The position numbers and the translations under genes are program-made. Source: Schmidtea nova (taxonomy: Eukaryota). From it: a DNA stretch of 64,000 nucleotides. Of this stretch, positions 3,999 to 60,489 are shown piece by piece. The notes under the pieces were generated by a model, which was not told the DNA's origin, made no database searches, and saw nothing but the letters and a program-made list of their open reading frames with translations. The stretch covers positions 26,102,001 through 26,166,000 of the forward strand of contig CM097882.1 in the NCBI GenBank assembly GCA_044892505.1, given 5' to 3'. Numbering within the stretch: the stretch's first letter is position 1; every line of letters begins with the position of its first letter.

Positions 3999-4000
3999 CA

Positions 4001-4554: not shown

Positions 4555-4646
<92 letters not shown>

Positions 4647-33874: not shown

Positions 33875-33892
33875 TGGGGGCTCAGCCGGGAT
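33875..33892 (+). other. Primer-binding site, tRNA-Pro-like
   Basis: TGGGGGCTCAGCCGGGAT versus canonical tRNA-Pro PBS TGGGGGCTCGTCCGGGAT (2 mismatches), 6 nt after the 5' LTR. Confidence 0.8.
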
Positions 33893-35401: not shown

Positions 35402-35445
35402 TTGAGGCCAATGAGCCATATTGAATGACCTAGCTAGGCGTTATT

Positions 35446-35700
35446 GAGAGATTAAATTGAGGCCAAGAGAGCCATTTGAGAGATTAAATTGAGGCCAAGA
35501 GAGCCATTTGAGAGATTAAATTGAGGCCAAGAGAGCCATTTGAGAGATTAAATTGAGGCCAAGAGAGCCATTTGAGAGATTAAATTGAGGCCAAGAGAGC
35601 CATTTGAGAGATTAAATTGAGGCCAAGAGAGCCATTTGAGAAATTAAATTGAGGCCAATAGAGCCATGTGAGATATAAAATTGAGGCCAGAAGAGCCATA
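35446..35700. repeat. 32-bp tandem array x8
   Basis: GAGAGATTAAATTGAGGCCAAGAGAGCCATTT; last two copies diverged; partial unit at 35402-35420. Confidence 0.97.
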
Positions 35701-36310
35701 GTGAACTATAGATATATCCGGATAAATAGTAATAGAGGGAATATAGACCCATAGTGTAATCGTCGACGAGATTTAGAGTAGTGCGCACTAGTAGTTAAGA
35801 GAATGCGAGTAAAGCTGATTATGCAACCTTAAGTAAAGCATGCAAGGAGAATAATAAAAATTGGAGCTGACCGGAGAACCGGCAGAATGAGTAAAACGAT
35901 TGCTAGCAGGGAATAATGAGTAGAGATGATATAATAATGATAAACGAGTCAGAAAGACTCAGGGAATTAGAGCGCTCGAGCGACCAATAAATTGGGAGAC
36001 TGTGGGAAAAGTAATTGATTGGATAAAGTATAGATAATTATTACGACATAAATAGATAATTGTGACCAGTCTATAGATAATTTAAATAGACTAAAAATAA
36101 AGGGGAATCTGGGAATTGGGAAATAATGAAAACCCAGTAATAAGTAATCCCGAAAGAAAGGGAATAAAAGCGCGACGATAACAATAATGTATCGTTGAGG
36201 ACCTTTGTATTTTAGATATACAAATCAATCAAATCAATCAATCAAGCAAGAAGAATCAGAAAAACGATAAGAGATAGAACAGGAAAATTGAGTATACAAA
36301 AGTAATCCCC

Positions 36311-45300: not shown

Positions 45301-48300
45301 TAGAGACCTATATCAATTTCGAAAGATGCCATTTGGATTAACGAACGCACCAGCATCATTTCAGAGATGCATGAATTTCGTCACCCACGGAATAAAGCAG
45401 TGCATGGTCTACATCGACGACTTATTGATTTACTCTAGTACATTCGAACAACACATACAGGATATTCGAGATGTATTCGTTAGACTTAGACAATGGAAGT
45501 TAAAACTCAAGCCATCAAAATGCGATTGGGCAAAAGAAAAGGTTACATTTTTAGGACATATAGTGTCAGCAAAAGGAAAAGAACCGGATCCTAGAAATAT
45601 CGACAAGGTAAAAGAATGTCCAGTACCAAAAACAATAACCCAAATACAAGAATTTCTCGGACTATGTGGATACTATAGAAAGTTTATAAAAGATTACGCT
45701 GATATCGCAAAGCCTATACAGGAACTGGTAAAGAAAGATGTATCCTTTATATGGGGAGATGAACAACAAACAGCCTTTGAAACATTGAGAGATAAACTGA
45801 TAACCGCACCCATATTAGTACACCCAGACTTTAAGAAGCCATTCTTACTTGCAACGGATGCAAGCGGATACGCAGCGGGAGCAGTATTAGGACAATACGA
45901 TGACGAAGGAAAAGAACGTGTAATCGGATATTATAGCCGGACATTCAAAAAGCATGAGAAAAATTACTCAGTAACAGAACGGGAAGCATTAGCGATTATA
46001 CTAGCAATAAAACATTTTAAATATTTATTATGGGGACACATCATCTGCATAACAACAGATCACCAACCGCTTGTATGGTTAGGACAGCACAAGGAAACAT
46101 CCAGTAGATTAATGCGATGGGCAATGCAGTTACAGGAGTACTCACCAGACATAAAATTTAAATCAGGAAAAGCGAATGCGAATGCAGATTGTATGTCAAG
46201 ACTGACATTTCCGGAATTAACCGATCCTGATGTACAACGAATTTGTGTGTTAATAGCGGAAGATTTGGATTTTAGTGAGTTAAAGAAGGATCAACAGGAA
46301 GACAAAGAATTAGGACAGATCATAGAGTTCCTAACATCTCGAAATAGGGAGATATTTAAGGATAATAAGGAATTAAAGGAACATATAGGAAAATATCAAC
46401 ATCGCTACATAATAAATAAAGGATGGTTATTAATACAAGACGGGGAAAAGAGATTGATGTGTTTACCGGAAAACAGAAGGAAAGAGATAATGATCCAATA
46501 CCATGATGGGAAATTGGGAGGTCATATGTCCGAGAAAAAGACCATAAATCGTATGAGACAAAAATATTATTGGCGAACAATGGAAGAAGATATAAAGGAA
46601 TGGATTAAAAATTGTCTAACTTGCGCAACCAGAAAGGATAGTGGGAAGAAATGGAAGAACCCACTACAACCAATGCCGATACCAGCAGAGCCAATGACAA
46701 CTATAGCAATGGACGTAATAGGACCATTACCAGAAAGTTTAAACGGAAATATTTATATATTGGTGATAACGGATTATCTGACGAAATTCCCGGAAGCATT
46801 TGCCATGCAAGACCAAAAAGCAAAAACCGTAGCAAAGATTCTAGTAGAAGACATATGTTGCAGATACGGAACTCCAAAACAAATACTCACAGACCAAGGA
46901 ACTAATTTTATGAGCGAGTTATTGAACGAGGTGACAAACTATTTCCGAATAGCAAAATTGAGAACTTCACCATATCACCCGCAAACGAATGGACAAACGG
47001 AGCGATTCAACGGCACATTGATTAGAATGTTATCAAACTACGTCAGCAGACACCAAACTGACTGGGATGAATACATAAAATTATGTTTAATGGCATACCG
47101 AATGTCGATACATGCAGCAACAAAACTAAGCCCATTTCAACTTATGTATGGAAGAGAATGCAACATGCCCATAGATTTAGAGTATCAGCCACCATTATCA
47201 CAATATATGGAAGACGACGACTACGTAACCAAATTCAAAGAAAGAATGCAGGAAATATGGAAAACGGCAGAACTCAACATTAAATTTTATCAGGAAAGTT
47301 ATAAGGACTTACACGACCAGAAGAAAAATGTTAAAGCGAACGATCTAAAACCAGGAGATTGGGTGATAATAGAAACTCCCGAAATAATACCAGGAACAGT
47401 TAAGAAACTCCAAAGACCTGGAAGAGGACCTTATGAAATTATATACAAAAAGGACAATAATGTCAAAGTTAAGCTAATAAATCGACCGTTAATACGACCC
47501 ATATATGTAAACACCTGCAGATGTAAGAAGGTGCCTAAAACGATAACTACAACACCAGAAAATCGAATAATAACTAGATCACAAACAGCCAGGATAAATA
47601 TGCTCAGAGCTAATGTAACTGAAGACGACAAAGCAGAAATAAGGCAAAAGGAAATCAGAAATAAAGAAATCATATTGAAGGCGAGAGAGATAATGGGAAG
47701 ATGGCATGTTAGAGACGAAGCAGGCATATCAAGGGATATTAGACATATGATTAGCCGTTACGCACAAGGATTACCAACCGAACCAATTATTTCTGAATTA
47801 TTGGAAAAAATCCCTGAAATACTCTTATTGAAAGATGTAGGAGGACAACCAGCCTTACATAATGCGATAGAGTGTAAAAACATGGAAAGAGCAAAAGAAT
47901 TCCTAAAAATCGCAAAAGAAACAAACCAAAACTTAGACGTAGGGAATCGGGAACAAGAAACTCCATTAATGACAGCCGCAATCCACCAAGCAGATAAAGA
48001 AATGATAGATCTATTGATAAAAGCTCATTTCAGTTGGACAGAAAGAGATAGAGAGGACAAAACAGTGCTAAATCACGTAATATGGAGTTCTCACCAACCA
48101 ATGCTGAAATACATAATAGCTAACTCCACTTGGGAGATAGACGAACTAGTTAAAGGAGATATTATCAAAGAGGCAATCAAAGTCGGTAAATGCAACACGA
48201 TCCGTAAGTTAATCAAATGGAAACGACCAGAAGATGATACATGGGTCCTAGACATAAACGAAGTATACAGCGAAGGACAAAACGCACTGTTAAGATACCT

Positions 48301-51300
48301 TTTGAAATTTACTTGTGATCAGAAGACATTACTAACCTTATTAGACAGAGGAAACATAAACATCACAAAGAATGAAGAAGAATACAAATTCGATAAAGAG
48401 AAGGAAGCCTTATTCAATAAGATTAGGAAATGGTGTGCGAAACCACTTGATAAACTAATAACATACAAAGACATAAACAATTTTAACGAGAAATACCAGA
48501 CAATAGTAAGTGAGTATGAGGAAATAATAAAAATCTTAAACCATCCCGAAAAATGCAAACAGGTTTTAGAGAAAAAAGAAAGAGAAAGTAACAAGAAACT
48601 CACACCACTCTTCAAAGCAGAAGCACCATACCAAGCTAGACTAGATGCGATACAAGAAAAAGCAAAAGAATTGTTACCGGAATTCGAGAATAGTAAACAT
48701 GCACTGGAAATACTCGGCGCATTAGTTGAAAAAGTACACGCATACGCAAAAGGAACATACAATGGTAACGACATAGTAATAATAAAAAAGGAGATGCCAG
48801 TAACATTCCTATTACCAAAAGACGGAATAATGCCCATACATAGAGCTCTACGAAATGGCAAAGATAGGAAAGTAATGGAAATTGCAAGAGTAATGCTAAA
48901 TTGCGGAAGCAATATGAATATGATAGACGAGAAAGGAGATACACTTATGGTATTTGCAGCAAGGGCCAAAACGAAAACAAAGGTATTAGAAGAACTATAC
49001 AAAGCAGGTGCAGGACTTACAGGAAAGACAGATAAAGATAATTCGATATTGGATGTAGCATTATTAACACACAATTGGGAAATGGTCAATTTCATTAAAA
49101 CCGTCCCAAATCAGGAAGAAATAGATCACCTAACTGATACGGTCAAGAAACCCAGTGTACTAGCAATGATGAACAACGTCGAACTAACAGAATCAATACT
49201 TACGTGGATAAATCCTAATACTAACGAACCAGCATTCAGGATTAATAAATTTACAGAACATAACCAAAACTGGTGTATAAGAAGTGCCTTAATAACGTAT
49301 AAATGGCCAGAGATATTGAAGATGTTTATGGAAAGAAAGGATCTAAGAATCACAACCAGCCCGAAAGAAGAAAAATACACAGGCAAATGGAAAGAATTGA
49401 TGAAGACATACATCAACAATTGGATCAAGGCCAAAAAGGAAATCTTGGAACATAAATCCACTAACAAAGTAATACCGGAGCAGGTAGAAACACAAGAATT
49501 TGAGGCAAGTAATCTAACGACATTAGCATATGCGAAACTAATAGAAGAAATAAATGTCGAGGACGACATTTTCGACGAACCAGGGGGAGATGACAACACA
49601 GATAGTGACGACGGTAACAACTCAGATAACTCAAGCGATCACGAACCACCCGATAAAGAGGAAAACGAGAGAAAAGACAAGAAACGAGACAAAGAAGAAA
49701 AGAAAAGTGAAGACGAAAAACAAAGAGATGAAGATGGAGAACAAGGAAAAAACGACCAAAGAGATAAAAATGACACCCAAAGAACAGGTTATAAATCAAC
49801 CATAAAACCATTCTTCAAACCAGAATTACTATTATTAACAGTGATTTTAACGTTAATTAACCCAAGTCAAGGAATGACATGTGAAGAAAGGGCAATAATA
49901 CAAATAAAAAACGCAAAAGGAATCGAACGAGTATGTTGGTCGAAAAAGGACAAAATCACGGAACAAAATAGGCCGATGGATTGCAGAATCTCAAAACACG
50001 AGCAAGAAATCATAGAGATCAATGACTTAGATCTAGATACCTGGTACAAAATATGCACCGTTAGAAAACAAAAGCATCCAAGATCACACAACACAATCGC
50101 ATGTGCAAAATACCAAACACCTAAAGCAGCCATGACAATACAACAGTCACCCAAAGGAGATTACATCCTCGGAAAATGTGGAAGAACAGAGACACAGGGA
50201 ACAGAAAACAAAAAACCCCCGGCAATAGATAAGCAAACAACACCAACTATACGAATTACAATAAAGAGGCCCGAAGCAAGAGTGGCCACAAACGAAACCG
50301 AAAGAGTGTCTTACCAAATGGAAGTATTATGCTTAGCACTCATACTAATAATAATAAAACGATTAGAGGAAGGAATAGAAATTGAAACTATGACAATAAC
50401 AGAAGTGGAAGATACACAGAACACTAACATAAAATGTTGGGCGAGGAATGACGAAGAAATCGGTGTAAATGAAATAAGGAAAAGTCGAAAACCCACAACA
50501 AACAAAGTAATTAAAGTATCCGAAGTAAGAGCAGACAAGACGTACAAACTATGCCTACTTGAGAAAGAGAGGAACAAGAAAGGTACCACAAAATGTAAAA
50601 CATTCCAACCTGGAGAGGTAATAAAGTTCCGAAGGAGAACGAGGAAGAGAAATAAACAAATCAAGCAGAAACTGAACATAACATTAGAAATAAAAGAAAT
50701 AGAACCAAATGTGAAAGGAGTATGCTGGAGGAAGTACGAAAAGGAAACAAATAAAAGAACGACACCACAATGTCAAACAAGCACAGGAGCAACAACGATA
50801 CAAATAAAAGGTCTAGAAAGTAAACAAACCTACGAAATATGTTTGGTAAAGAAAAATGATCAGATAACGATAAACGACCTAGAATGCGGAATACATACAA
50901 CTTCATCCGGAACAAGAACCAAAACGTTAACACGGAAAAATAAAAGGAAACAACGAAACAAAGAAAAACCGAAGTACACCACTACCTTTAAAAATAATAA
51001 ACAACCAATAAGCCAGGAAGCCACGACAAAACCCGAGAAAAAGACATCAGCAACTCTGACATTATGGAAAATAGAGAATAAAACATTAGAAATATGTTGG
51101 ATAATAGTTCAGAAACCTATAAGAAGACAATCAAGAGAGTGCAGAAAAACAAATAAAGAAATCAAGATCGAAAAACTACAATTTAATAGCGAGTATGAAG
51201 TATGTGCAATAGAAAGAATGGACGCACTAGGAAACCAACAAGAAAGATGCGAAACCTACTATACACCAGCGAACGCAACATCAAAAGGAATAACAAGGAA

Positions 51301-53275
51301 ACTCGAATTCAGGGAACTAAGCCAAACGAATGAACAAATGGACGTAGAAAAAACAATAACCGACCCTCAAGCAAAATGGACACCCGAAGAAGTTATCAAG
51401 GAAGTCAAAAGAAAGCAAGAGGAACGGGAACAATTAATGAGAAAACTAAAGGGACAATACGGAATAATGTCCAACCAAAGCGAATCTATACAAACAGACG
51501 AGAATAAAGAAATTAAAGAACTAATTGGCTTAGGAATATTAACAGCGACCATTCCAGTAATAATCGCGTTATCAGCTATATGGATACGCAAGATAAGCCC
51601 AAGAAAATCAACAACCCAATGGCTAAATATAGATAATACAAGCCATGGAGTAGAAATACTAGAAGAAAAAGCACGAGAAGAACCAAATAAGAAAGAAGCG
51701 AAAAGCGGAAAACTAGGAATAAACAACAAAGACAAGGAAATAAAAGAGATTAAAGGCGAAGAGAAAAAATATGAAAGGCGGACCAGAAGCCTACCGCAGA
51801 GTTCAAAATGGTTGGGTCTAACAATAATATTGACATTAATTAATAGGGAAGAAGCAATAAACCCACAGACAGGAATAAAAGTAATAAATGTCCAGGAAGT
51901 CGAGAAAATATGTTGGTATAGAGAAGATGAACCAATTGGAGAAAATAACCCACTAAAATGCATAATCAGAAAATCCGACCAGGATATCGTACGAATAGAA
52001 GAAATGGATGGAGGAACCATACATCGGATATGCATAATAGAAAAGGAAAAGAAGTCGGGGCTACCTAAGACAGTCGTATGCCAGAAATATGAAACGCCTA
52101 GACTTGAATGGTATAGAGTAAAACCAACAAAGAAAGAAATCAAAAACACAATAGATCAACCAGCAACTCAGATAAGAAACACGACGGATAAACCAGGAGA
52201 AGGGGAGAGAAGCATAAATAACACGAGAGAAGGAGCATCACCCCAACAAGATGTCGTATGCATAGCGTTAATAATAGCAATGTCCAAACGTATCAATAAA
52301 GGAATAACAATAGAACAAATGGCCATGACAATAAGGAGAAAAGGCCGGAGTAGCAACAAAATATGCTGGGGATGGTACAACGGACAAAAAGAATACCAAG
52401 TTCAGACAAGCGACGAATCACGAACAAACAAGGAAACCGAAATACAAGAAATACAAATGGACGGAGAAGGAAGTATATGTATATGGGAGAAAGGAATCCA
52501 AGAAGATCAACCCGGAATAGAAAAGTGCAAGACATTCCAAAAAGGAGAAATTCTGAAATTCGATGAAAAAGAATTAACCAAAACAGAAAGAACTCTGACA
52601 TTAACAGGACTTGATCAGACAGTGAAAGGAATATGTTGGACAAAACATAACCCAGAAGGAGAAGAAGGTAACCTAACCCACTGTAAAGAAACAGGGAATA
52701 AAGAAAAAGTCGAATTAAAGAAAATGGAAGTAAATAGGACATACGTGATATGTACCTTCACCAGAAAAGGTTCAGAAAAACCAGAATGCGGATTATATCA
52801 GATCTCAGAGAAACCACAACAACAGATCAAACCAGGAAACGTGGAAAACCGAACAAAAGAAAATAACGTCAAACAACTACTAAATCGCCATTGGTCTACA
52901 CAAGAAGTAATGAACAAAGTCAAGAATCAAGTACAGAAGGAGAAGAAGCCAGAGGCTCAAACCCAAAATGAGATAAAAGCGAATCAGAATAAAATCAAAG
53001 CAACAAACCGTGGAAAAACAGTAATAGGATTAATCAGTATAGGAATATTAATAGCATATGGGATAATGACGACAAGCATGATAATATATTGGAGATACAG
53101 AAAGAGAAACAAAGCGACAGCCATACAATGGCCAGATATTAAAATTATGAAGCAAAGAATAGAAATACCAGAAGAAATACAGCAAGAATTCCAAAGAAGA
53201 ACGAAAGGTAAAGAATTCTGGAAACAAATAGAAGATGAAGAACGATACGAGGAAAAGACGACAATGAGGGTATAG
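36311..53275 (+). CDS. Single ~5,650-aa polyprotein: Gag-Ubl x3-Bcl2-like-Env-PR-RT-RH-IN-ANK-FN3-like/TM modules
   Basis: Frame open from 36278 to the stop at 53273-53275 with no frameshift; first ATG at 36797, so the true start is uncertain. Domain evidence in the sub-features. Confidence 0.97.
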   Translation: MRKGAKSVVVKPTEKKVDSNSNKKDKTSTTTKSTKKQKAGKDNPQGSKSRKIIRDKSITENDKLSIISNSSSNKENQAEPKENQASETESDETNNDNIEEVENEVEPEIEINASDNESIISDNEGIRETESDSSSSKTEDEHNNELETRGNESKITQDSGIEMGEPREEIKDKFSGEPFNGDASKLETFLKEFGIFVEVCKWKAETTVSRIQLYLKDSALDLYLEAKNGTNPPTSWTAIKDFFQQTFGINKVLSEAFIEFSMRKQKMNESNAVYASELKKLAKSVFKDGGPINEELMAAIFIGGLRRPDIRAQVGCQGCKTIDQALETANRFELHMIGSEGRIYLAMDTAQTEPEVNLNNHIPNSQQLNRPPPQRRNEGNKVQNFGNQNNYNPQGQTKQCKTCGKLGHWQQECYQNLNCGKCGVKGHSESRCSTIICFNCGRPGHYSRNCGQKSNQRGNWQSNGNRPNYGNQANTVNRPDYGNQQNNNNNNQNKTTPKEIHLMQEVQRLTELINNTTRGNPQTNQQQISMMRKIESENERLNRESQARHAQEWARIQREDEQKQQERERQPLRINMLRATNQTDTREKETTLEMNSINPNPADNESRKEIVQKDEEVEKEAEKGEETEINQEERRKIWKKGMMVIMPNDHMFRFQYNAKEKVEILFNKVNQMIPGVTKLPREAFLQIEGAPSVKLKLTDIWENMGVVETKRNVMRIKEIEPEEIPPPIRHETRIRRIFEGKMIRRRLKEIDELGKKMEKVKIIEDKSEPTPEIDKNEPEPTENIQGETNQTAHINMLRNTTREFSDEEEDSDISSLAGDILKESEDENKEMKVIKTSEPTQIKVDEIQKLLDNSLEVIYNEEFMDKKQYRKFMKALLQMNYKEWLQDREVDMLNRYVGKLIEEPLLNYTISIIINTSTPRIWIKTPFTDDIYRWVEDRLGSSYRNKFIYSQNRLVKKRTHLVETGIWPGEITLLSICDEKEEENLQEVAREANACFERRIKPRLEYEKERVLRKNLNFLIEQIIPQVKKHRKELMRSEYEKLKRCIECIRDTSHTRWSQISHDKLIAKMGKTMFRQGKITDLKISVELPNEDTKEIEVVADCTIKELINVINETLVQREPEDEWEDDIIIQYNEHVLWDHDERRLYKIGIWDNHQTIHVSRMDDTPRETAKDEKRERERRKEVVRKLQQIVDIYRNWRIWPEWENVLEELNLNRRIRTPVEKQWNEKGKCWEPKEGEYEEEYKRGIEDDCEPEIGRVCMVTRKATPIDLDGPETAAMWLEREKQKTEEFVEILKTNAHGKRKLIKGLADFFAVNGEDITCLRKVAKAITEYKRVNEWCPEQLDHVIRKWRNQEFSQEIPQKVHLRIIYPNKDKEELWVGIAEKIRDIKKKLRYEPPFHLQHQGRSLDNSLEIGITPAQLDLMNTLTVEAIAGQPLKRKEENHKLHGSISTPSPMKSVLTPGTSSRRSETTPRGTRERTPPQPYDVDEILTDSDDMIEELTELTKEKEDNIFERIQELPTTIQVTNTGEAEVEEEIIIEEVNDLTEDETRGANVENVQLTQEMERWLEERANEPRDVTEETGRATRFVETGTGMDRRHRGRPKTDPANIVVRNKDEKRQDQWELCLRKLNKIAEMKEKETTPICQGEEWISKIIMEILAIIDPELRKYWRITEISEKAKSLHSAIAPILPEFIKEKTKSNHLDWQGTTTLIKKLTEGAETDNKYVIAIAYTIYNLLTLSRGRPKPTALERHIKNTAKIIAREIEPYVINIGGWETFIKANQKKTQAKNMKKKFEKILEELEKEQAGTGNAKSSMNLSAIIMMMLIWMISTDSATAFEVFDCDQMKLGEKYSLRGTEQCKDATPVELQKIKKEQWYHVYQEAELIKTMVNECKVQKTRFAFYCGRGHYSAIVMPGTEREPIVLQGEDCEALFKHGEVTTRDKIKIRGKPGMMMQQTYYVAGRITGGEGYCQGETYPIFGVPATNLVVMDTYIVELKSYEAFFEPTTGEMKTLPMCKIDRSMCQTGMSTLVYKPKVNECQLQLLQGAQFDEIQGKTFQEEDDDDKARAKHLKEALENKRQLKPDHREKRIEMRATPTVLITTNQDVGMRFIKGKATLKCSTTVYETNYPGIYVSKQEVPNAKPKIDTMDIKLHLYVNNKMDFLFHRGQASLQKVYYDLINNDCILNREILKTKLAVAITNPDSAMPLLPLREGHFGRVVGEAMYVYICEKTHASLAATTQLKPGTCTNELEIDYKGKVRYVQPVTRIINPPGFEPNPFNCSNAYGPLYQKPDGKWVMFPGRSEVIAPREFELMQLSKDRQFSDVDVSNNGIYSPKDLEAARQNILFPARREALLSNIVTITGGTDYREGPNYELLLSPAHFKKATENMMKAMWGRFLIFGQMMAGILGVILIIQIVRVIITQMLACFDIYKREKKVNWKMVVGFLPFLAKTMVLHGHSKDIHRIKRLLKILAKMKGTDEEVGRKFKKIMNDEQARQQLKRERKGLWERMKGYKTQNDSSDDDDDDDDYKGGQVYKNQAPQYIEKNPADAWKCYAPPPTMYQEPLQGGKNSTMQMMPMTNVYPMIPEDYKMRRCRSVDPQGDTHTIAVMSSNTGAVLTTTIEINGREIEAMIDTGANISAIDIKWIPQEQRREIERTNVHVIACSKEVVEVAGRWWVKIRHLNTEIDTYVAVIPALSVPCIIGTDLMPALFKEIVIDLGTMRLKDRTGQICAIEAKVTSSKQMIIPARKEKICYVKIDPTIQGDMIFEPSKRFEKRKALPMARGLVNINDDGEIPINVVNFDEEDKIIYENERLGKLTPMMDIELPIEGAEKDKEPTWNIDSELLNEDQRKQLEKLLIEYKDIFAASDLDLGTCDVTLHTIPLTDETPIALRPYKLAEAQKAVAEAEVKKMLDAEVIEPSCSPWQFPVVMVKKKDGTQRFCIDYRRLNTVTKRDTYPLPDINEMLLTLQGAAYFTSLDLKSGYWQIKMKEEDKEKTAFTIGRDLYQFRKMPFGLTNAPASFQRCMNFVTHGIKQCMVYIDDLLIYSSTFEQHIQDIRDVFVRLRQWKLKLKPSKCDWAKEKVTFLGHIVSAKGKEPDPRNIDKVKECPVPKTITQIQEFLGLCGYYRKFIKDYADIAKPIQELVKKDVSFIWGDEQQTAFETLRDKLITAPILVHPDFKKPFLLATDASGYAAGAVLGQYDDEGKERVIGYYSRTFKKHEKNYSVTEREALAIILAIKHFKYLLWGHIICITTDHQPLVWLGQHKETSSRLMRWAMQLQEYSPDIKFKSGKANANADCMSRLTFPELTDPDVQRICVLIAEDLDFSELKKDQQEDKELGQIIEFLTSRNREIFKDNKELKEHIGKYQHRYIINKGWLLIQDGEKRLMCLPENRRKEIMIQYHDGKLGGHMSEKKTINRMRQKYYWRTMEEDIKEWIKNCLTCATRKDSGKKWKNPLQPMPIPAEPMTTIAMDVIGPLPESLNGNIYILVITDYLTKFPEAFAMQDQKAKTVAKILVEDICCRYGTPKQILTDQGTNFMSELLNEVTNYFRIAKLRTSPYHPQTNGQTERFNGTLIRMLSNYVSRHQTDWDEYIKLCLMAYRMSIHAATKLSPFQLMYGRECNMPIDLEYQPPLSQYMEDDDYVTKFKERMQEIWKTAELNIKFYQESYKDLHDQKKNVKANDLKPGDWVIIETPEIIPGTVKKLQRPGRGPYEIIYKKDNNVKVKLINRPLIRPIYVNTCRCKKVPKTITTTPENRIITRSQTARINMLRANVTEDDKAEIRQKEIRNKEIILKAREIMGRWHVRDEAGISRDIRHMISRYAQGLPTEPIISELLEKIPEILLLKDVGGQPALHNAIECKNMERAKEFLKIAKETNQNLDVGNREQETPLMTAAIHQADKEMIDLLIKAHFSWTERDREDKTVLNHVIWSSHQPMLKYIIANSTWEIDELVKGDIIKEAIKVGKCNTIRKLIKWKRPEDDTWVLDINEVYSEGQNALLRYLLKFTCDQKTLLTLLDRGNINITKNEEEYKFDKEKEALFNKIRKWCAKPLDKLITYKDINNFNEKYQTIVSEYEEIIKILNHPEKCKQVLEKKERESNKKLTPLFKAEAPYQARLDAIQEKAKELLPEFENSKHALEILGALVEKVHAYAKGTYNGNDIVIIKKEMPVTFLLPKDGIMPIHRALRNGKDRKVMEIARVMLNCGSNMNMIDEKGDTLMVFAARAKTKTKVLEELYKAGAGLTGKTDKDNSILDVALLTHNWEMVNFIKTVPNQEEIDHLTDTVKKPSVLAMMNNVELTESILTWINPNTNEPAFRINKFTEHNQNWCIRSALITYKWPEILKMFMERKDLRITTSPKEEKYTGKWKELMKTYINNWIKAKKEILEHKSTNKVIPEQVETQEFEASNLTTLAYAKLIEEINVEDDIFDEPGGDDNTDSDDGNNSDNSSDHEPPDKEENERKDKKRDKEEKKSEDEKQRDEDGEQGKNDQRDKNDTQRTGYKSTIKPFFKPELLLLTVILTLINPSQGMTCEERAIIQIKNAKGIERVCWSKKDKITEQNRPMDCRISKHEQEIIEINDLDLDTWYKICTVRKQKHPRSHNTIACAKYQTPKAAMTIQQSPKGDYILGKCGRTETQGTENKKPPAIDKQTTPTIRITIKRPEARVATNETERVSYQMEVLCLALILIIIKRLEEGIEIETMTITEVEDTQNTNIKCWARNDEEIGVNEIRKSRKPTTNKVIKVSEVRADKTYKLCLLEKERNKKGTTKCKTFQPGEVIKFRRRTRKRNKQIKQKLNITLEIKEIEPNVKGVCWRKYEKETNKRTTPQCQTSTGATTIQIKGLESKQTYEICLVKKNDQITINDLECGIHTTSSGTRTKTLTRKNKRKQRNKEKPKYTTTFKNNKQPISQEATTKPEKKTSATLTLWKIENKTLEICWIIVQKPIRRQSRECRKTNKEIKIEKLQFNSEYEVCAIERMDALGNQQERCETYYTPANATSKGITRKLEFRELSQTNEQMDVEKTITDPQAKWTPEEVIKEVKRKQEEREQLMRKLKGQYGIMSNQSESIQTDENKEIKELIGLGILTATIPVIIALSAIWIRKISPRKSTTQWLNIDNTSHGVEILEEKAREEPNKKEAKSGKLGINNKDKEIKEIKGEEKKYERRTRSLPQSSKWLGLTIILTLINREEAINPQTGIKVINVQEVEKICWYREDEPIGENNPLKCIIRKSDQDIVRIEEMDGGTIHRICIIEKEKKSGLPKTVVCQKYETPRLEWYRVKPTKKEIKNTIDQPATQIRNTTDKPGEGERSINNTREGASPQQDVVCIALIIAMSKRINKGITIEQMAMTIRRKGRSSNKICWGWYNGQKEYQVQTSDESRTNKETEIQEIQMDGEGSICIWEKGIQEDQPGIEKCKTFQKGEILKFDEKELTKTERTLTLTGLDQTVKGICWTKHNPEGEEGNLTHCKETGNKEKVELKKMEVNRTYVICTFTRKGSEKPECGLYQISEKPQQQIKPGNVENRTKENNVKQLLNRHWSTQEVMNKVKNQVQKEKKPEAQTQNEIKANQNKIKATNRGKTVIGLISIGILIAYGIMTTSMIIYWRYRKRNKATAIQWPDIKIMKQRIEIPEEIQQEFQRRTKGKEFWKQIEDEERYEEKTTMRV
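36797..37660 (+). other. gag: Gag capsid-like domain + three CCHC zinc knuckles
   Basis: FNGDASKLETFL..LYL..SWTAIK..F..RKQ..ES..Y..EL..FIGGL; CKTCGKLGHWQQEC, CGKCGVKGHSESRC, CFNCGRPGHYSRNC (37508-37660). Confidence 0.92.
38228..40597 (+). other. Three ubiquitin-like (beta-grasp) domains: 38228-38463, 39554-39793, 40394-40597
   Basis: Best copy LKISVELPNEDTKEIEVVADCTIKELINVI..IIIQYNEHVL..DERRLYKIGI..TIHV follows the ubiquitin hydrophobic pattern; other two weaker; no C-terminal GG. Confidence 0.6.
41252..41650 (+). other. Bcl-2-like domain
   Basis: Helical region ending in BH2-like IAREIEPYVINIGGWETF; degenerate BH1 position (LTEGAETDNKYVIAIAY). Confidence 0.7.
41747..43670 (+). other. env: Envelope glycoprotein, chuvirus/gB-like class III fusogen, embedded in the polyprotein
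   Basis: Signal-like MNLSAIIMMMLIWMISTDSATA then FEVFDC; Cys pattern and motifs (CKVQKTRFAFYCG, AGRITGGEGYCQG, LYVNNKMDF..DC.LNREIL, GEAMYVYIC, CTNEL, PVTRI..C, NGIYSPKDLE..ILFP) colinear with chuviral-type glycoproteins; REKR at 42557-42568; TM 43487-43582. Confidence 0.85.
44108..44480 (+). other. Retropepsin aspartic protease (followed by a dUTPase-like spacer to ~44760)
   Basis: IEAMIDTGANISAI (DTG at 44195) and CIIGTDL. Confidence 0.95.
44810..46210 (+). other. pol: Reverse transcriptase + RNase H
   Basis: SPW..PVVMVKKKDG..RFCIDYRRLN, LDLKSGYWQI, MPFGLTNAPASFQR, YIDD (45410); TDASGYAAGAVL, EREALAI, TDHQPL, ADCMSR. Confidence 0.98.
46250..47590 (+). other. Integrase (HHCC, DD35E, GPY/F)
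   Basis: YHDGKLGGH..CLTC; MDVIGPL, TDQGTNF, GQTERFN; GRGPYEI. No chromodomain seen. Confidence 0.97.
47830..49100 (+). other. Two ankyrin-repeat clusters
   Basis: GQPALHNAI, QETPLMTAA, DKTVLNHVI; GIMPIHRAL, GDTLMVFAA, DNSILDVAL. Confidence 0.85.
49820..53275 (+). other. Two paralogous membrane modules with seven Cys-bearing FN3-like domains
   Basis: Module A 49820-51640 (4 domains, TM 51521-51583); module B 51809-53275 (3 domains, TM 53021-53092); repeated CW..C..I..L...T.Y.IC..C...T motif. Confidence 0.65.
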
Positions 53276-53401
53276 GGGCGGATTATGACTGTAAATAATA
53301 GTGTAAATAACAAAGCATTACCGTAATAGTATGGGTATCGATATTATAAAAAATTGTAAAAAGCTAGAAAAACAAAGTAAATGATGTATATAATTTAGAA
53401 A

Positions 53402-53758
53402 ATGACCGAACAGGACGAAACAACTGAAATAACTATGGCTATGAGATGGAAAGCACAATGTGATTTATTAGTACGAACAGTCAACTCATTACAGAACCAA
53501 TTAGCGGAAAGACAAATGTTATTATCAGAAAGTTATAACAATTGTTTCGAACAATTACACAGAATAGAGGAACAACAAAGAGCGATAACTGAACTCACCA
53601 GAGAAAATCAAACGATAAGCAACACCAATCAAAGACAAGCAATAGAAATAAACCATTTAACACGAGGAGAAAGAGAAGGATCCGAAGAAGGATGGATGAG
53701 TTGGGTAATAAATAGATTAAACAACGAAGCGGAACCAGATTCAACGAATGAGCCATAG
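53402..53758 (+). CDS. 118-aa coiled-coil orphan
   Basis: ATG in TAGAAAATG context, heptad pattern, element-like codon bias. Confidence 0.75.
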   Translation: MTEQDETTEITMAMRWKAQCDLLVRTVNSLQNQLAERQMLLSESYNNCFEQLHRIEEQQRAITELTRENQTISNTNQRQAIEINHLTRGEREGSEEGWMSWVINRLNNEAEPDSTNEP

Positions 53759-53852
53759 ATAAATAAAGCGGAAAACTGTAAATATGTAAAAATAAAAACA
53801 AGAAAAATCCAAAAAATAAATGACAAGTCGAATGTATATATTATTGTAGAAA

Positions 53853-55229
53853 ATGGACAGAGAAGAACGAATAATCGAAATTTTGAGACTAGAAAACAGA
53901 AAATGGAGTAAGAGGCTCACATGCGGGAAGTGTAACAATTTATTACGAGAACCCAGACAAACGATATGTGGATGTAGAATATGTACAAAATGTATACAAG
54001 AATTGGATGCAACAGGAATAACAACATGCCCAGAATGTAAAGAAGGAGGAATAGTGTTGGACGAAACCAGAACGGACAAAGCAACCCAAAGAGAAATTAT
54101 GAGCACCACAACGGAGTGCGTAAATACACCTTGTACATGGCAAGGACAAATAAGTAATCTGGAAAACCATATGGAAAAATGCGAGGAAAAGAGAGCCGAA
54201 TGCGAGAAATGCCAACAGACAATAACTCTAAAGAAGAGAGAACAACACAAGGAAGAATGTAAAGAAGAAGAAATCGCATGCGAGTATTGTGAAGCCCGAG
54301 AAACAAGGAGAAAAATCGAAGAAGAACACTTGAATATAACAGAGGAGAAAGTATGCGGACAATATGTAAGTAAATGTCCAAACAATTGTGAAATAACAGA
54401 AGAAATAAAATTACATGAACATTGGAAACTATGTACCGAAAGGCCAAGAGAATGCCCATATAACAAGCATGGATGCAAGGAAAAGCGGACGCGAAAAACA
54501 ATGCAACAACATCTAGAAGAAGCAGCACTAACGCATGTGGAAATGACAAACGAAACGACTAAAGAAACGGAACGGACAATTCAGAAATTAGAAAAAGAAG
54601 TAGAATCACATAAAATAATGATGAGTTTACTACTAGAAACAAGAGAGCAGTTTGAACTAACTCGCGAAAGAATGGAAAAGAAAATAATAGCCATAGAAGA
54701 ATTAGGAAAAGGAATGAAAATACAATATAATCAATTAATACGAGAAATTGACGAAAGAAGGGACTTACCAATCGCACCTTACCTATGGAAAGTAACAGAT
54801 TTCAGAGACAAATTAGCAGAAGCCAGAAATATGACGAAAACAGCAGTAATAAGCCCACCATTTTATTTATGGAAAAACGGGGTTAAAATAAGATTGAAAG
54901 TATACCCAAATGGAGACGGAAGAGGACAAGGAACACACGTGTCAATATTCTTCTCACTATGTAAAGGAGAATACGATGACCTAATAAAATGGCCCTTGAA
55001 AATAGGAGTCATTATAAGAATCAAAAGTACGGGAAAACCAGTAGAAAAGTTCTTTGAAACAGACAAACATTCGAGTACGAGCGAAAAGCCAACGACAGAA
55101 TGCGGACTAGCAGCAGGAGAACCAATGTTTATAAGGAAAGAAAACCTATGGGAGCAACTATATACAGACACGCTATACATAGAGATGGAGAGGCATGAGA
55201 AAGCAGACAGAAAAGGATGGTTGGCGTAA
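53853..55229 (+). CDS. Intronless full-length TRAF homologue (RING, TRAF Zn fingers, coiled coil, MATH)
   Basis: CGKC..CGCRICTKC..CPEC RING; C..C..H..C fingers; YLWKVTDF..SPPFY..YPNGDGRGQGTHVSIFF..GEYDDLIKWP MATH. Confidence 0.96.
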   Translation: MDREERIIEILRLENRKWSKRLTCGKCNNLLREPRQTICGCRICTKCIQELDATGITTCPECKEGGIVLDETRTDKATQREIMSTTTECVNTPCTWQGQISNLENHMEKCEEKRAECEKCQQTITLKKREQHKEECKEEEIACEYCEARETRRKIEEEHLNITEEKVCGQYVSKCPNNCEITEEIKLHEHWKLCTERPRECPYNKHGCKEKRTRKTMQQHLEEAALTHVEMTNETTKETERTIQKLEKEVESHKIMMSLLLETREQFELTRERMEKKIIAIEELGKGMKIQYNQLIREIDERRDLPIAPYLWKVTDFRDKLAEARNMTKTAVISPPFYLWKNGVKIRLKVYPNGDGRGQGTHVSIFFSLCKGEYDDLIKWPLKIGVIIRIKSTGKPVEKFFETDKHSSTSEKPTTECGLAAGEPMFIRKENLWEQLYTDTLYIEMERHEKADRKGWLA

Positions 55230-55342
55230 TGAAGGAAGTAACCATGTAAATAAAATGTATAGAAACAATATGAATTAACAAATAATCAAAAACAATAAAA
55301 AATAAAAAATGATTAAATATTCTTTTATCTGTAATTATAGAA

Positions 55343-56404
55343 ATGGGAAATATAGAAGTAACCTTACAAGAAGTAACAGTACATCAAGACGAAATGATCA
55401 GAAATCACATGGAGCGGATTGGGATATGGATTCATGCCTATTATCGAAAACAGGAAGAATTGGAAAGACAAACCCAAGCACTAAGAGAAGCCGAGAAAAC
55501 GAATCAAAGAAGTCGAGAAAAAATAGAAGAAGTCTACAAACTACTAAGACAACAAAACGAATACTACAAAGAGATGATGAAAGAGCGACGAGAGGATAGG
55601 GATAGACAACAAATAAAAACAGACCATAAGATTCAGTCAATCACAGAACAAGCAAGATATTGGAAGAAAGAGGCAAAAGACTCTTACAAGGAAGCAAGGG
55701 AGATAATAGAACGAACAGCGTACAGCGATGATTGGAAACTGTTTAAAGAGATCGATGAATTAAAAGAGGAATTAGGGCAAAAGATCAGTCAAGAAGCGTC
55801 AAATAAAGTATGGAGTAAGAAAAGACAACAATTCATCAGAGAACAAGCCAAGAAAATAAAAGAATTAACTTATCAAGTACAAAGAATGGGAGAAGATTTA
55901 GCCAATCAAGAACAATTAAAAGGTATGCTGACCGGAATGTGGAATCACAAGGAAGAAAACATGAAAAGAGACATAAATGGATATCAAGGAGTGATCACCC
56001 AGAAGAAAATAGAATTAAAAAGAACTAAAGAAAGACTGGAAGAAACGAGGCAGAGTTATGAAGAGAACATAACAAATTTGGCAAAAGAAAACGAAGAACT
56101 GAGAAAGAAGTTGGCAGAAAAACCAACACCAATAAAAGAAACAAGTATCACAGCAGCAGTGACCGAAATGATGGAGAAGGAAGAGAGAGAGAAAAAATTG
56201 GCAGAACTAGAAAAACAAATTGAAACCCTAACAGAACAGGCGAACTATCTGGAATACTTATTAGATGAAGAGATCCAGATATCCCACACATACCGAGAAG
56301 AAGTCGAAATGTGGAGGAGCACGGTAATATGGATGCCACTCCCCATAAATCAGGTGGAACCTCAAGACGAAGGTTTTTACGAACCCAACGAAACCCTTGT
56401 ATAA
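55343..56404 (+). CDS. 353-aa coiled-coil orphan
   Basis: Long E/K/Q/R heptad-rich ORF; TAGAAATG start; no recognised domain. Confidence 0.85.
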   Translation: MGNIEVTLQEVTVHQDEMIRNHMERIGIWIHAYYRKQEELERQTQALREAEKTNQRSREKIEEVYKLLRQQNEYYKEMMKERREDRDRQQIKTDHKIQSITEQARYWKKEAKDSYKEAREIIERTAYSDDWKLFKEIDELKEELGQKISQEASNKVWSKKRQQFIREQAKKIKELTYQVQRMGEDLANQEQLKGMLTGMWNHKEENMKRDINGYQGVITQKKIELKRTKERLEETRQSYEENITNLAKENEELRKKLAEKPTPIKETSITAAVTEMMEKEEREKKLAELEKQIETLTEQANYLEYLLDEEIQISHTYREEVEMWRSTVIWMPLPINQVEPQDEGFYEPNETLV

Positions 56405-56479
56405 ACGTGCGAAAACCAAGTGTAAATAAATTATGTAAAATAAAAAGTGTCAAGCTGTATTGACCGATGTATAAAAGAG

Positions 56480-57049
56480 ATGAGAAAGCTCGCAATAGCA
56501 ACACTCCTATGGTTAACAACCATTACCCTACAGAGAGAAGATCTACAACTAACCGAAACCCAATTACGAGTTCTACCCGACAAAATCTACCAGAAAGTAG
56601 ACAGCCTAATCGAAGAAGTAATTAAAGAAATCAACGAATTCCGACAGAAATATCCCTACAATCAAGATCATCAAATCCAACAAATCTTCGATAACCAACA
56701 ACTGAAACTAGAAGAAACCCGAAAAATCCTAAAAGAAGGTAGAGAACCCATAAAAAGCCTATCCCAAGCTGAAATAGAATATCAAGAGAAATGGATCATA
56801 GCAATCATCATAATCCTAGCAGTCAGCACAACTATCATCGCAATCACAATCCTGCTTGCCTCGTATAGAATAAAAATCCTAAAACAAAAGCAGAAAATCT
56901 ACAACCAAACCTCCAGACGAGATAACCGAGCTCAAAGACGAATAAGGAGCCATCTCAACCACATTCAAACCCACTACGAGCTACAAATGATCAACGAGAG
57001 GACCCGAACTCAACCCCAAGCGAGCCAGACGATCGAACAAATTGTATAA
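56480..57049 (+). CDS. 189-aa predicted type I membrane orphan
   Basis: ATG at 56480 in frame with the listed GTG ORF; signal-like MRKLAIATLLWLTTIT; TM WIIAIIIILAVSTTIIAITILLA followed by a basic tail. Confidence 0.78.
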   Translation: MRKLAIATLLWLTTITLQREDLQLTETQLRVLPDKIYQKVDSLIEEVIKEINEFRQKYPYNQDHQIQQIFDNQQLKLEETRKILKEGREPIKSLSQAEIEYQEKWIIAIIIILAVSTTIIAITILLASYRIKILKQKQKIYNQTSRRDNRAQRRIRSHLNHIQTHYELQMINERTRTQPQASQTIEQIV

Positions 57050-57220
57050 ACATTATGATAAACTTACCGAACTATTGTGACAAATCATTACATTTTGACT
57101 ATTTAATGACAAACTTTATGATATGTATAAATTCGATCACCTTATGTGATTTTCTTTGCATGTATAACTTTATAAAACTTTTTATGGATGATGAATATAA
57201 GTATTTATGTATAATTAATT

Positions 57221-57251
57221 GCGGGACGCAATTTTAGGGGTCCCCGGGTGA
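57221..57251 (+). other. Plus-strand primer region (atypical PPT)
   Basis: GCGGGACGCAATTTTAGGGGTCCCCGGGTGA directly before the 3' LTR; Gypsy-like position but not a pure purine run. Confidence 0.55.
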
Positions 57252-58641
57252 TGTTGGGCCCGCCAAATCACCTAAAAACACAATAAAACGAACAAAAGCA
57301 TGAAACAATAAAGAAATAATAAAAATAAAAATAGCAAGAAAAACAAATTAAAAATAACAATAAAACGACAAATAATAATTGATAAATTTTCAGTAAAAGG
57401 AAATTTTGAAAATAAACCGGTAAACAACCGCAAAAGGGGGCCTGAAATAAGAAAAAATATAATTAAATAAAATAATAGTACAAATAATTAATTAATTACT
57501 TGGAAAATCAGGACCACCCAGCGAGAAACCGGAAAAGGAAACAAAATAATGTTTAGATTAGAATAAAATAATAAAAATACTTTGATGGACGGCCTGATCC
57601 TGATTGGTCAATCCAACCAGACGGATCAGTATAAATACCGATCCAAAAATCATAACTCAACAGTTAAGACGTTTTACATTTCACTTACAATCAAGACTAA
57701 ACTTTGATTTAAGTAACATTTCATTTAACGAAGCGAGAATTTTTTGAAAAAACAGAATTCAAGTACGGAACGTAATTTTGATTGTTATTTTTTGTGTACC
57801 CATGATTTTTGTTTGATTAAAATTTTATATGTAAACGTTATTTTATTTTTTCATTGATTATTGACACTTTAATGCATATAGCTATACTTCCTATGCTGCT
57901 CACGCGGCGAGGGAGTCCGAGTCGTCGTCGTGGGGCCTCAGGGTCTCACATGGCGGTTCAACCTTTTTATTATTTAATTTAGATGTGAAGTTTTATCTAG
58001 AAAATTTGATTGAATTTTTAGTCTAATACAGACCATTTGCAAATTATTTAATTTTGGGTTGCACAACGGACGAAGGTCGAGGGCCAAATATGTAGATTGC
58101 GGAGGGCGGATGGATAAGGAGGGACACACCATGGTAGGGCATGCTCAGTCTTTAAATTTTTGGTAAATTGAATCGAAAGGGAACCTCCCGCATGGAAAAC
58201 AGTGAGCAACAACTAAAATAAATTTGAATAATTTCGTTGGAATGAGAAAATCCAACGTAGTCCAAAGTCCGATTTCATTCGGAATCAGCATTTCGCCTAC
58301 AAAATTTTAATATCGATAAATTCCGATCGCGATGGAATGCGTCGGAAAATCCAAATTAAATTAGTTACTAAAAATAGGCCGATCGTCGTATATGACGCGG
58401 TTTCCCAAGTTATTCTCCGATCGCTGTATATAGCGCGGAAATCTTGATTAAATTTGATAATTCCTGAATGCTGCATATAGCACAGGACTAATTATGAACT
58501 CTTTATTCCGACCGTGGTAGATCACGGCGGAGAGAAATAAAATTAATCTTATTTTTTAACGGTTGTGATTATATGCAACATAATTAAATTATCAACGAAT
58601 TCCCCCTTAACTCATATTTATATCCAATAAATGTAATATAG

Positions 58642-59121
58642 ATGTCGACAGCTGAACTTACAAATCAATTAACGCAACTACGGAATATGGAGCAAGGGAA
58701 TCTGCGGAATGAAAATATCTCGCAGCTCAAGGATCTACCAGCATCGATATTGCGAACCCTCAACTGCCAAATGTATAAGTGGCGACAGGGGTTTGGCCGA
58801 AAATGCCCGTTCTCGATATGGACAGGAGGGCACGACCAAATACTCTATCGAGGAGGACCGAACTGGCCGATTTCTCAAAGGCCGTACTCAAACAAATTTG
58901 GCCGACTTGTCGTACTGATCAAGGACACCGATGGACAGACAAGCCGTGTAATTTATTGGGGGCATATCCCTCGTCGGGAACTATGCCAACTAGGCCTACA
59001 CGAATTCCTGCCACGAAAACCGTTCGGCAAGGAGTGCCAGAAAGGACAACCCTCATTCTCTTGGGCTCGTCTCCGTCAGAAACCGATTAACAGCGAATTA
59101 CATAGCCTGTTTCGGAGATAA
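58642..59121 (+). CDS. ORF-L1 copy in 3' LTR
   Basis: Translation identical to 32140-32619. Confidence 0.5.
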   Translation: MSTAELTNQLTQLRNMEQGNLRNENISQLKDLPASILRTLNCQMYKWRQGFGRKCPFSIWTGGHDQILYRGGPNWPISQRPYSNKFGRLVVLIKDTDGQTSRVIYWGHIPRRELCQLGLHEFLPRKPFGKECQKGQPSFSWARLRQKPINSELHSLFRR

Positions 59122-59305
59122 GAACTGATTGTCAAATCTTTCAAATTGTGATTAAATATTAATATTCAGCAGTGTTTTTGTTATGTTGTTTTGAGTTTTG
59201 GTATTGTGTTTTTAATAATTCATATTCGTAACCAAATAACCCTATGATCAGTTTCATTTTTCACATCATTTAATCATAGAGTAAATATCCTAAATAAATT
59301 ATAGA

Positions 59306-59902
59306 ATGAACCCAGATTTGATGCAGAAAGAATTGGAAAAGATGTGGCGGATTCGGAGAGCCCAGGATAAGGAATTGGGTCTCCTCAAGGCACAATTGAT
59401 CAAAGCAGAGGCACAGATTGCATATTTGCGCAAAAGCTGGTTTGCTCCGGCCCGAATGAAGGAGCAAATCAGTAAAACCGAGCGCGCCCAACAGACTGCA
59501 GCCGATTACCAAATGGAATGGGAGGCTACAAAGATAGAACTCCGAAAATGCCTCCATTCCGTAACTGCCTCATACATCGAGAAGGAACTCAGAGAGCAAA
59601 TCCGTCCGATTACGTACCAAGCTTGGACGGCAGAAAAGAAGACAGTAAACTCCATTGGAACGGATGTCCCCGATTTAATTGAAAGTCGGAATGAGACAGC
59701 TCCTCCAGCCAATTCAACCACTTCATCGGCGACTGCGCACCAGAAACGCAAGCGCATTGGGCAGAAACGGCGGAGACAGAGAAAATTATTTGCCCAGCAA
59801 TTACAAATCCAAGTCGATGGTCTACATCAGATGACTGAGGAAGCATTATTGACGGAGATTTTTCCTCCGGCGGGAGTTTTTACCGAACTCATTAAAAATT
59901 AA
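59306..59902 (+). CDS. ORF-L2 copy in 3' LTR
   Basis: Translation identical to 32804-33400. Confidence 0.65.
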   Translation: MNPDLMQKELEKMWRIRRAQDKELGLLKAQLIKAEAQIAYLRKSWFAPARMKEQISKTERAQQTAADYQMEWEATKIELRKCLHSVTASYIEKELREQIRPITYQAWTAEKKTVNSIGTDVPDLIESRNETAPPANSTTSSATAHQKRKRIGQKRRRQRKLFAQQLQIQVDGLHQMTEEALLTEIFPPAGVFTELIKN

Positions 59903-60489
59903 ATAAATTGTTGCATTGGCTTAAGAATCTCATCGTTCATTTAAATTGATTTAATTAACTTTACCAATGATTAAATAAAGATAGAACAAAAGTATAAATT
60001 CAGTTTACAAAATATCGAATAGAGATAATTAAATAATTAAGCGAGCATTCGTTGAAATACTTCTCGCAGACTGAGTAATGATAAAAATAAATTTTCTGAA
60101 AGATTAACACGGAATACCTAAGGGGATGATTAAAGCGTAAGTCCTTCTAACGGCAGCAATGGACCCGTAAACATAAATGGGGAGTAGTACTAGCGATAGT
60201 GCTCACCTGCCCATCATTGTTTAACCACCCTGCGCATCACCAACTTGATTATATAGGGAAATAATCAAGGGCGCTTGAGTGTAAAATTGCAATTTTATGC
60301 ATGATCATGGATGAGGGATCCCTAGTCATTGTTAGAGCATTTTTCATCTAACCCCTCCATGAACCCAGCAAATACAACAAATAATTGAGTCAGTGGCAAA
60401 CAGTTTTTTTAATTTCTCCGGTTCTCTTTCATAATTCTTACCTCGTCTATCCATGTATGTTCTTAGAAACAGTCTTATATCTATAATAT

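Follow-up and report, generated by a model that had tools for sequence, protein, structure and literature searches.

A 64,000-nt stretch of the Schmidtea nova genome (GenBank assembly GCA_044892505.1, contig CM097882.1, positions 26,102,001 to 26,166,000; hereafter the window, numbered from its first letter) contains a young Burro-type giant long terminal repeat (LTR) element of 29.6 kb at positions 30750 to 60370 of the plus strand, and four open reading frames (ORFs) behind its polyprotein form its 3′ accessory cassette. The spacers between these genes carry acceptor-like AGs just ahead of the start codons, together with an 8-mer, TGTAAATA, that is anchored to the preceding stop codon and not to the acceptor. 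Each gene most likely obtains its own 5′ end by splicing. Cis-splicing, with all of its versions taken together, is a reasonably probable explanation, and the particular version that we favor, in which one short LTR leader exon is joined to the different genes and Pumilio acts at the stop-anchored motif, has about an even chance of being right.

Stop-anchored motif and acceptor-like sites

Four same-strand ORFs follow the polyprotein stop at 53275, separated by spacers of 126, 94, 113 and 75 nt, as the initial annotation had described. Spacer 1 (53276..53401) has 8-mers at 53290, 53302 and 53385 and an acceptor AG at 53398; spacer 2 (53759..53852) has 8-mers at 53777 and 53833 and an acceptor AG at 53849; spacer 3 (55230..55342) has an 8-mer at 55245 and an acceptor AG at 55340; and spacer 4 (56405..56479) has an 8-mer at 56421 and a weak acceptor. 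Three motif positions given previously (53290, 53302 and 53777) were exact, and two others, 55247 and 56420, are corrected here to 55245 and 56421. Within the 408 nt of these spacers TGTAAATA occurred five times, with all four represented (dinucleotide-shuffle mean 0.24; none of 20,000 shuffles contained as many), and the degenerate form TGTA[ACT]ATA occurred seven times (0.36 expected). TGTAAATA was found nowhere else in the element, and its depletion in the polyprotein was not significant (0 vs 0.7 expected). The word TGTATATA ahead of two starts, previously taken as start context, and the motif behind the stops are elements of one kind.

The comparison covered five lineages with one copy each (the window, L060, L055, L057 and L062), giving 23 spacers of 73 to 246 nt. 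Protein identity to the window over the accessory proteins o1, TRAF and o3 was 73 to 76% for L060, 60 to 70% for L055, 48 to 54% for L057 and 30 to 35% for L062; the TRAF ORF of the other lineages is 35 to 76% identical to that of the window, and L062 has seven downstream ORFs, among them a BIR-RING gene. Copies L053, L059, L061, L063 to L065 and others, which are decayed or redundant, lie outside the counts. Homology guided the manual placement of the TRAF start in L055, L057 and L062, of the o3 start in L062 and of one stop in L055; an earlier in-frame ATG is present for the two hand-set L062 starts. Readthrough of the polyprotein stop was considered and rejected, as spacer 1 measures 126, 125, 126, 124 and 152 nt in the five lineages and the frame is lost.

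In 20 of the 23 spacers the first 8-mer lay 14 to 21 nt 3′ of the stop (2.5 expected), whatever the spacer length; two of the three exceptions have no 8-mer, and in the third it lies at 135 nt. The distance from 8-mer to AG spans 50 to 201 nt, and the letters between stop and 8-mer differ. Among 10 close copies, none of the 56 motif columns was variable, compared with 26 of 343 other spacer columns. The initial annotation had every ORF end at the motif; this does not hold, as no 8-mer follows the stops of the last ORF, the RING ORF or either of the two LTR ORFs.

The 8-mer fits UGUANAUA, the consensus of the Pumilio element (PMC11182014), in untranslated RNA and on the sense strand. The 23 spacers contain 87 UGUA words, of which 25 are TGTAAATA, 8 are TGTATATA and 1 is of the TGTATACA type. 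One PUF locus was found in the host, with the repeat triplets SRQ, NYQ, CRQ, NHQ, CRQ, NYQ, SNE and NYQ, all eight of which we take to be canonical by the Pumilio recognition code. A terminating ribosome covers a minimum of ∼15 nt past the stop, as seen in work on microRNA sites, and the start of the motif 14 to 21 nt behind the stop points to a cytoplasmic binder on translated mRNA. It is hardly likely at all that the same letters act as DNA, with TGTAAATA binding Forkhead and TGTATATA serving as the TATA box of an internal promoter for each ORF. GTAAATA fits the Forkhead consensus; however, GTAAACA did not occur in the spacers, the variable position is the N position of the Pumilio element, the sites are 34 in sense and 1 in antisense orientation, and TGTATATA lies 17 to 20 nt 5′ of the ATG, too near for a TATA box.

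Acceptor likeness was scored with a matrix from 35 host introns of tubulin and actin loci, of which 30 were kept (two miscalled introns and three near-duplicates were removed). The best AG within 20 nt of the ATG had a median score of 4.4 across the 23 spacers, compared with 5.2 for host introns (leave-one-out) and −0.9 for the 458 other ATGs of the element. A YAG was present within 8 nt of the ATG at 20 of 23 accessory starts and at 117 of the 458 other ATGs. The seven AGs put forward in the initial annotation (32139, 32802, 34224, 53398, 53849, 55340 and 56479) were all correct, and AG 34224, which precedes the RING ORF, ranks first by score among the 2133 AGs of the internal region. Between lineages TAG and CAG swap, and the AG-to-ATG distance of orthologues moves among 1, 2, 3 and 7 nt; because this distance is free to vary, the joined exon would contribute no codons.

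Upstream ATGs occur in 21 of the 23 spacers (63 ATGs in 2739 nt), which disfavors ribosome scanning through the spacers; splicing would remove them. In a reporter test in planarian cells a downstream ORF was untranslated (PMC9606109). A polycistronic RNA, translated by termination-reinitiation or internal entry, with a factor that the motif recruits next to the terminating ribosome, would accommodate both the fixed distance between motif and stop and the short, A-rich, unstructured spacers (z 0.3 to 1.1). We nevertheless consider it very unlikely, given the upstream ATGs, the lack of any structure or Rfam element in the spacers (a tRNA gene search was also blank), and the conserved YAG and AUG-free gag leader that it leaves unexplained.

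That leader, together with the acceptor ahead of it, is the strongest sign of splicing. In the window the candidate T-rich acceptor lies at 36202..36215, with its AG ending at 36215, and is followed by a gag leader of 581 nt (36216..36796) with no ATG in any frame (7.7 expected). A T-rich AG lay 464 to 653 nt 5′ of gag in all 17 loci with a gag match, and the interval from acceptor to gag ATG held no ATG in six of seven copies and one in the seventh (5.8 to 8.1 expected). The AUG-poor stretch behind the acceptor is 450 to 590 nt long, and the region just 5′ of it has 4 to 11 ATGs. As a separate observation, the gag frame is open across 36278..36796 (519 nt, 173 codons ahead of the first ATG), and in six of seven copies the leader has 1 to 2 stops in the gag frame, compared with 8 to 21 in the other frames, suggesting an N-terminal extension of Gag with a non-AUG start.

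At the other end of the proposed intron, a predicted LTR promoter with a CCAAT box at 31100 and a TATA box at 31128 (31100..31135), a layout that recurs in 14 LTRs of three lineages, would place the transcription start near 31155 to 31160. In 14 of 14 LTRs from three lineages a GT follows at TATA+108 to +141, with no ATG from TATA+35 to this GT. In the window, the GT at 31261..31262 (CAA/GTACGG, second-best by the host matrix) is the candidate major splice donor and would end an AUG-free leader exon of ∼100 nt. This candidate donor is 5′ of the primer-binding site, so that, as we propose by analogy with foamy viruses, only unspliced RNA could be reverse-copied.

A proposed splicing model and its alternatives

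In the favored model a single LTR promoter would drive transcription, and the unspliced RNA would be the genome. The ∼100-nt non-coding leader, with its donor at 31261 in R, would be spliced either to the gag acceptor or to that of a single accessory ORF, giving nested mRNAs that mostly have their 3′ ends in the 3′ LTR and are each translated in the first ORF only. Pumilio would bind behind the stop of that first ORF, at the nearest site clear of the terminating ribosome. Planarian stem cells need Pumilio (PMC3552358), and the function that we favor, as the simplest, is that Pumilio would repress or destabilize the messages in these Pumilio-dependent cells. Alternatively, it might protect stops that are followed by kilobases of RNA from nonsense-mediated decay (NMD); this would explain the fixed motif position better than repression, although the papers listed in a literature search offered no precedent for NMD shielding by Pumilio. 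Monocistronic mRNAs made by splicing had been proposed in the initial annotation, either from a common leader or by spliced leader (SL) trans-splicing. The AGs are acceptor-like, as that proposal has it, and alternative splicing from a common leader is the best model.

Several points weigh against the favored model. No junction in RNA is in evidence. In four runs, cover was near-flat over coding and non-coding sequence alike, and no GT..AG joint was found among the 15 joints listed of 17 (which leave the stretch from 5′ LTR to RING ORF uncovered). Two leader-end patterns followed by a non-G returned no spliced retrocopies, although this is a weak test (one pattern reaches 28 LTRs). In the four LTRs that were scored, the candidate donor comes only second among the GTs up to 400 nt from the TATA box; its flanks vary between lineages, an ATG lies near TATA+32 in two lineages, and neither promoter nor donor was located in the commonest Burro family. 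A splice of 22 to 25 kb is required, skipping many higher-scoring AGs. AG 56479 does lie just ahead of o4, as the initial annotation had claimed for every ORF, but it scores poorly as an acceptor (top AG within 20 nt, −2.5; host median, 5.2), and the last ORF has weak acceptors in three of four lineages (−2.5, 1.4 and −1.9). Perfect Pumilio elements make up only 34 of the 87 spacer UGUA words. The 23-spacer counts are not independent, because spacers are homologous between lineages, and they include the four starts and one stop placed by hand. Finally, a motif behind each stop would be expected if the ORFs had short 3′ untranslated regions (UTRs) of their own, favoring internal 3′ ends.

Internal 3′ ends belong to a second version of cis-splicing, in which each ORF is a terminal exon polyadenylated in the spacer behind it and CFIm25, not Pumilio, would bind the paired UGUA words. 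The window spacers are enriched in UGUA (15 vs 5.7 expected), often in pairs 8 to 12 nt apart; 13 of 23 spacers have an AATAAA 3′ of their first 8-mer; host-like U-rich 3′ ends follow the two LTR ORFs; and the list of subunits that planarians lack does not include CFIm25 (PMC5068929). The same paper, however, describes planarian poly(A) signals without upstream UGUA and CFIm59/68 as undetected. Moreover, a nuclear factor would be blind to the stop codon to which the motif is anchored; conservation extends over the full 8-mer, beyond UGUA; and the genomic RNA would be cut at four to seven internal poly(A) sites. We regard this version as quite unlikely.

The initial annotation had taken UGUA plus AAUAAA as a 3′-end signal, and the counts do not bear this out. 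AATAAA was not enriched in the window spacers (8 vs 5.1 expected, P = 0.12; none in spacer 1) and is absent from 8 of the 23 spacers; none of five reported hexamers occurs in 4 of the 23. The spacers are A-rich (A 0.49, T 0.28), compared with A 0.34 and T 0.47 at host 3′ ends (46 loci), and no U-rich downstream tract was found in them. Among 47 host tubulin/actin loci, none had an 8-mer within 157 nt of the stop. On these comparisons, and in line with the account of planarian poly(A) signals cited above, the 8-mer is not a host 3′-end signal. It is also worth noting that host-like U-/GU-rich sequence with ATTAAA/AATAAA occurs behind the two LTR ORFs (32620..32720 and 33401..33500), which, unlike the cassette ORFs, may have poly(A) sites of their own.

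In the remaining alternative the host SL would be joined to each acceptor, whether or not every spacer also has a poly(A) site. A host SL-like exon and a gene-like copy of it were found by pattern search, the exon end occurring at 857 genomic places (control, 2). The exon ends in ATG, in agreement with an SL ending in AUG (PMC12582326), and the junction fell exactly at the genomic AG of the parent gene in three of five genes traced; the other two traces ended at further captured copies or a later exon. By these junctions SL trans-splicing is active in the host, as the initial annotation had assumed, and SL use in planarians is also supported by PMC10899757. A second SL type was observed as two inverted, gene-like copies (C2:408589603-408596931) with a GTAAG donor, a hairpin and an Sm-like U run.

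Given 857 or more places with the SL exon, a trans-splicing host is assured for this alternative, which needs no long-range cis-splicing. Spacers of ∼100 nt fit the Macrostomum operon peak (PMC8629364), flatworm acceptors often serve both cis- and trans-splicing, retrotransposon RNAs can receive the SL (PMC12582326), and separate 3′ UTRs suit a motif behind each stop. However, no SL junction into a Burro exon start was found among 100 listed of 857 matches, among 100 listed of 141 or in a complete list of 63; a gag-type start gave no matches, and the SL motif was absent from 24 Burro loci. The genomic SL copies amount to a small library of trans-spliced 5′ ends, but this negative is weak, because they sample few distinct mRNAs (junctions were read by eye, and the second SL type was not searched). 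The AUG-free gag leader fits badly, because the terminal AUG of the SL adds an upstream AUG, whose frame relative to gag would differ among close copies. The 8 of 23 spacers that lack AATAAA and the missing U-rich downstream tract also speak against SL use, as do two host SL acceptor regions, each followed over 400 nt, neither of which had UGUA in the last 300 nt. We rate SL trans-splicing of the cassette as unlikely, although a good deal less so than terminal exons. Both cis- and SL-splicing could occur, because flatworm acceptors are often shared.

The SL search also brought out an unrelated LTR family, in which the LTR comprises a short common 5′ part, the whole 42-nt SL exon and a host mRNA 5′ end (L153 to L182, e.g., the pairs L156/L157, L161/L162 and L176/L177; 857 or more places). 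The common upstream part was present in 27 of the 30 copies fetched. L156 and L157 are 99% identical across 1.42 kb and have TG...CA ends, with a primer-binding-like site behind one of them. The captured 5′ ends derive from mRNAs for UFL1, an IMD protein, a LEM protein and an HAP1/BICD-like protein; the parent AG lies exactly at the junction in three genes, and an intron is missing from one copy. This suggests that trans-spliced mRNAs are captured systematically via the common SL during reverse transcription. SL fragments have been noted in LTR and LINE loci of parasitic flatworms (PMC12582326), without mention of capture of this kind.

The element and its relatives

The element is bounded by two LTRs of 3119 nt (5′ LTR, 30750..33868, TG...CA; 3′ LTR, 57252..60370) that differ by one mismatch and are flanked by a 4-bp target-site duplication, AATA (30746..30749 and 60371..60374). 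Within the 5′ LTR are LTR ORF1 (159 aa, 32140..32619; AG 32139, acceptor score 5.6) and LTR ORF2 (198 aa, 32804..33400; AG 32802, acceptor score 6.0), neither of which has a Pfam match. A primer-binding site at 33875..33892, which we take to be tRNA-Pro-like and whose motif recurs in other lineages, is followed by the RING-finger ORF (153 aa, 34228..34689). Two tandem arrays, with 29-nt and 32-nt units, lie between the RING ORF and the gag acceptor (35134..35731), an interval where other families have different tandem arrays.

The polyprotein (5492 aa, 36797..53275) has, by domain matches, a Gag with zinc knuckle, a fusion glycoprotein (PF24664), protease, reverse transcriptase (RT), RNase H (RH), integrase (IN), ankyrin repeats and late transmembrane (TM) segments. 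Of the cassette genes, o1 (118 aa, 53402..53758) and o3 (353 aa, 55343..56404) are coiled-coil-like and had no homologue in the protein collection searched, so their N-termini give no clue to a junction. The TRAF-like ORF between them (458 aa, 53853..55229) encodes a RING, a TRAF zinc finger, a coiled coil and a MATH domain, and has at least 92 copies at 94 to 100% identity in the host genome. The last ORF, o4 (189 aa, 56480..57049), has a hydrophobic N-terminus and one TM segment. In all four ORFs third codon positions are ∼2 to 4 times as diverged as second positions between the window and L060, a pattern of purifying selection, seen for o1 among the others, which indicates that the accessory ORFs are real genes. 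Directly 5′ of the 3′ LTR is a conserved inverted repeat (57217..57233) common to all families seen; together with a GC-rich stretch (57217..57251) it occupies the usual place of the polypurine tract. A pattern for this end of the element had 3065 genome matches in several families (control, 3).

Two further families were observed. In the commonest Burro family (L031/L027, L040, L061 and L062) the polyprotein is reduced to a short remnant with protease and ankyrin repeats, and the family appears mostly non-autonomous; it has up to seven intact accessory ORFs, including BIR-RING, and some copies drop whole units of ORF plus spacer. A 16-kb gypsy family (L011 to L030), reached through a search for the env family, has an env-like fusion protein within a polyprotein of 3400 aa and one downstream ORF of ∼480 aa. 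It was rejected as a parallel, being a different family in which a spacer design of this kind is absent. Outside the element, positions 1 to 6125 of the window have inverted repeats of 1255 nt around a DUF4371 ORF (474 aa) and 120-nt repeats, and thus hold a hAT-like DNA transposon or part of one.

Comparison with known systems

Burro elements and their accessory ORFs are already known: they have been described as ∼30 kb long, with a polyprotein of ∼5000 aa and accessory ORFs, and with ankyrin, MATH/TRAF, RING and BIR genes (PMC6431247). The window element has the same paired LTRs, target-site duplication and primer-binding site over 29.6 kb, an RT-RH-IN order followed by ankyrin repeats, and, as in GYPSM1-like Burro elements, an env-like fusion protein between gag and protease (PMC6431247); this assignment was made on anatomy against the published description. 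Knockdown of piwi-2 raises BURRO1 (PMC8532177). The TRAF/IAP/RING cargo of Burro elements has been suggested to interfere with apoptosis in the host (PMC6431247), and apoptosis/ubiquitin cargo is represented here by TRAF and RING in the window and BIR-RING in the sister family. Unlike in those descriptions, TRAF is a separate downstream ORF, and in the sister family the downstream ORFs number up to seven. The passages of PMC6431247 consulted are silent on the acceptors, the gag leader and the stop-anchored motif, and neither they nor those of PMC8532177 and PMC11410931 treat expression of the accessory ORFs, although the original Burro paper (Grohme 2018) may do so. What would be new is a splicing plan like that of complex retroviruses in a gypsy-type element, together with the unusual stop-anchored motif. 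The conserved spacer design predicts exact junctions, which can be checked in planarian RNA data.

The nearest retroviral likeness is with foamy viruses, in which the major splice donor lies in the LTR, 5′ of the poly(A) signal (PMC3694450); the candidate donor of the window is likewise in the LTR. Unlike foamy viruses, the element has a single Gag-Env-Pol polyprotein and up to seven downstream ORFs, with no internal promoter or transactivator evident. Foamy virus genes are expressed from separate spliced mRNAs. A broader picture of the element, as a gypsy-type virus that uses splicing, perhaps with the SL of the host, to express a polyprotein and up to seven accessory genes from one promoter and tags their stops for Pumilio gene by gene, is tentative and on the whole doubtful. 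If it is true, a stem-cell RNA regulator switches a whole apoptosis/ubiquitin cassette, or guards long-tailed mRNAs from decay.

With the SL operons of C. elegans and Macrostomum lignano the cassette shares same-strand genes ∼100 nt apart, an acceptor before the ATG and a host SL. Unlike in those operons, the spacers have no conserved poly(A) signal or U-rich element, no SL junction was found, and the cassette sits in an RNA that must also stay whole. Were the broader picture to hold with the host SL, the element would be a mobile SL operon.

Stop-proximal stability elements bound by PTBP1 protect retroviral stops from NMD (PMC4764554), and they likewise place a site for an RNA-binding protein by a stop with a long 3′ tail behind it. 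The motif and protein are different here, and Pumilio is known as a repressor, which makes NMD shielding speculative. Compared with Pumilio response elements, the predicted sites match the consensus UGUANAUA exactly, occur in non-coding sequence and in sense orientation only, and accompany a canonical host Pumilio; unlike the usual elements, they are repeated behind successive stops at a fixed 14 to 21 nt. This arrangement suggests a link between a Burro element and the Pumilio of planarian stem cells, and makes the stop-anchored site a natural test case for position-dependent PUF function.

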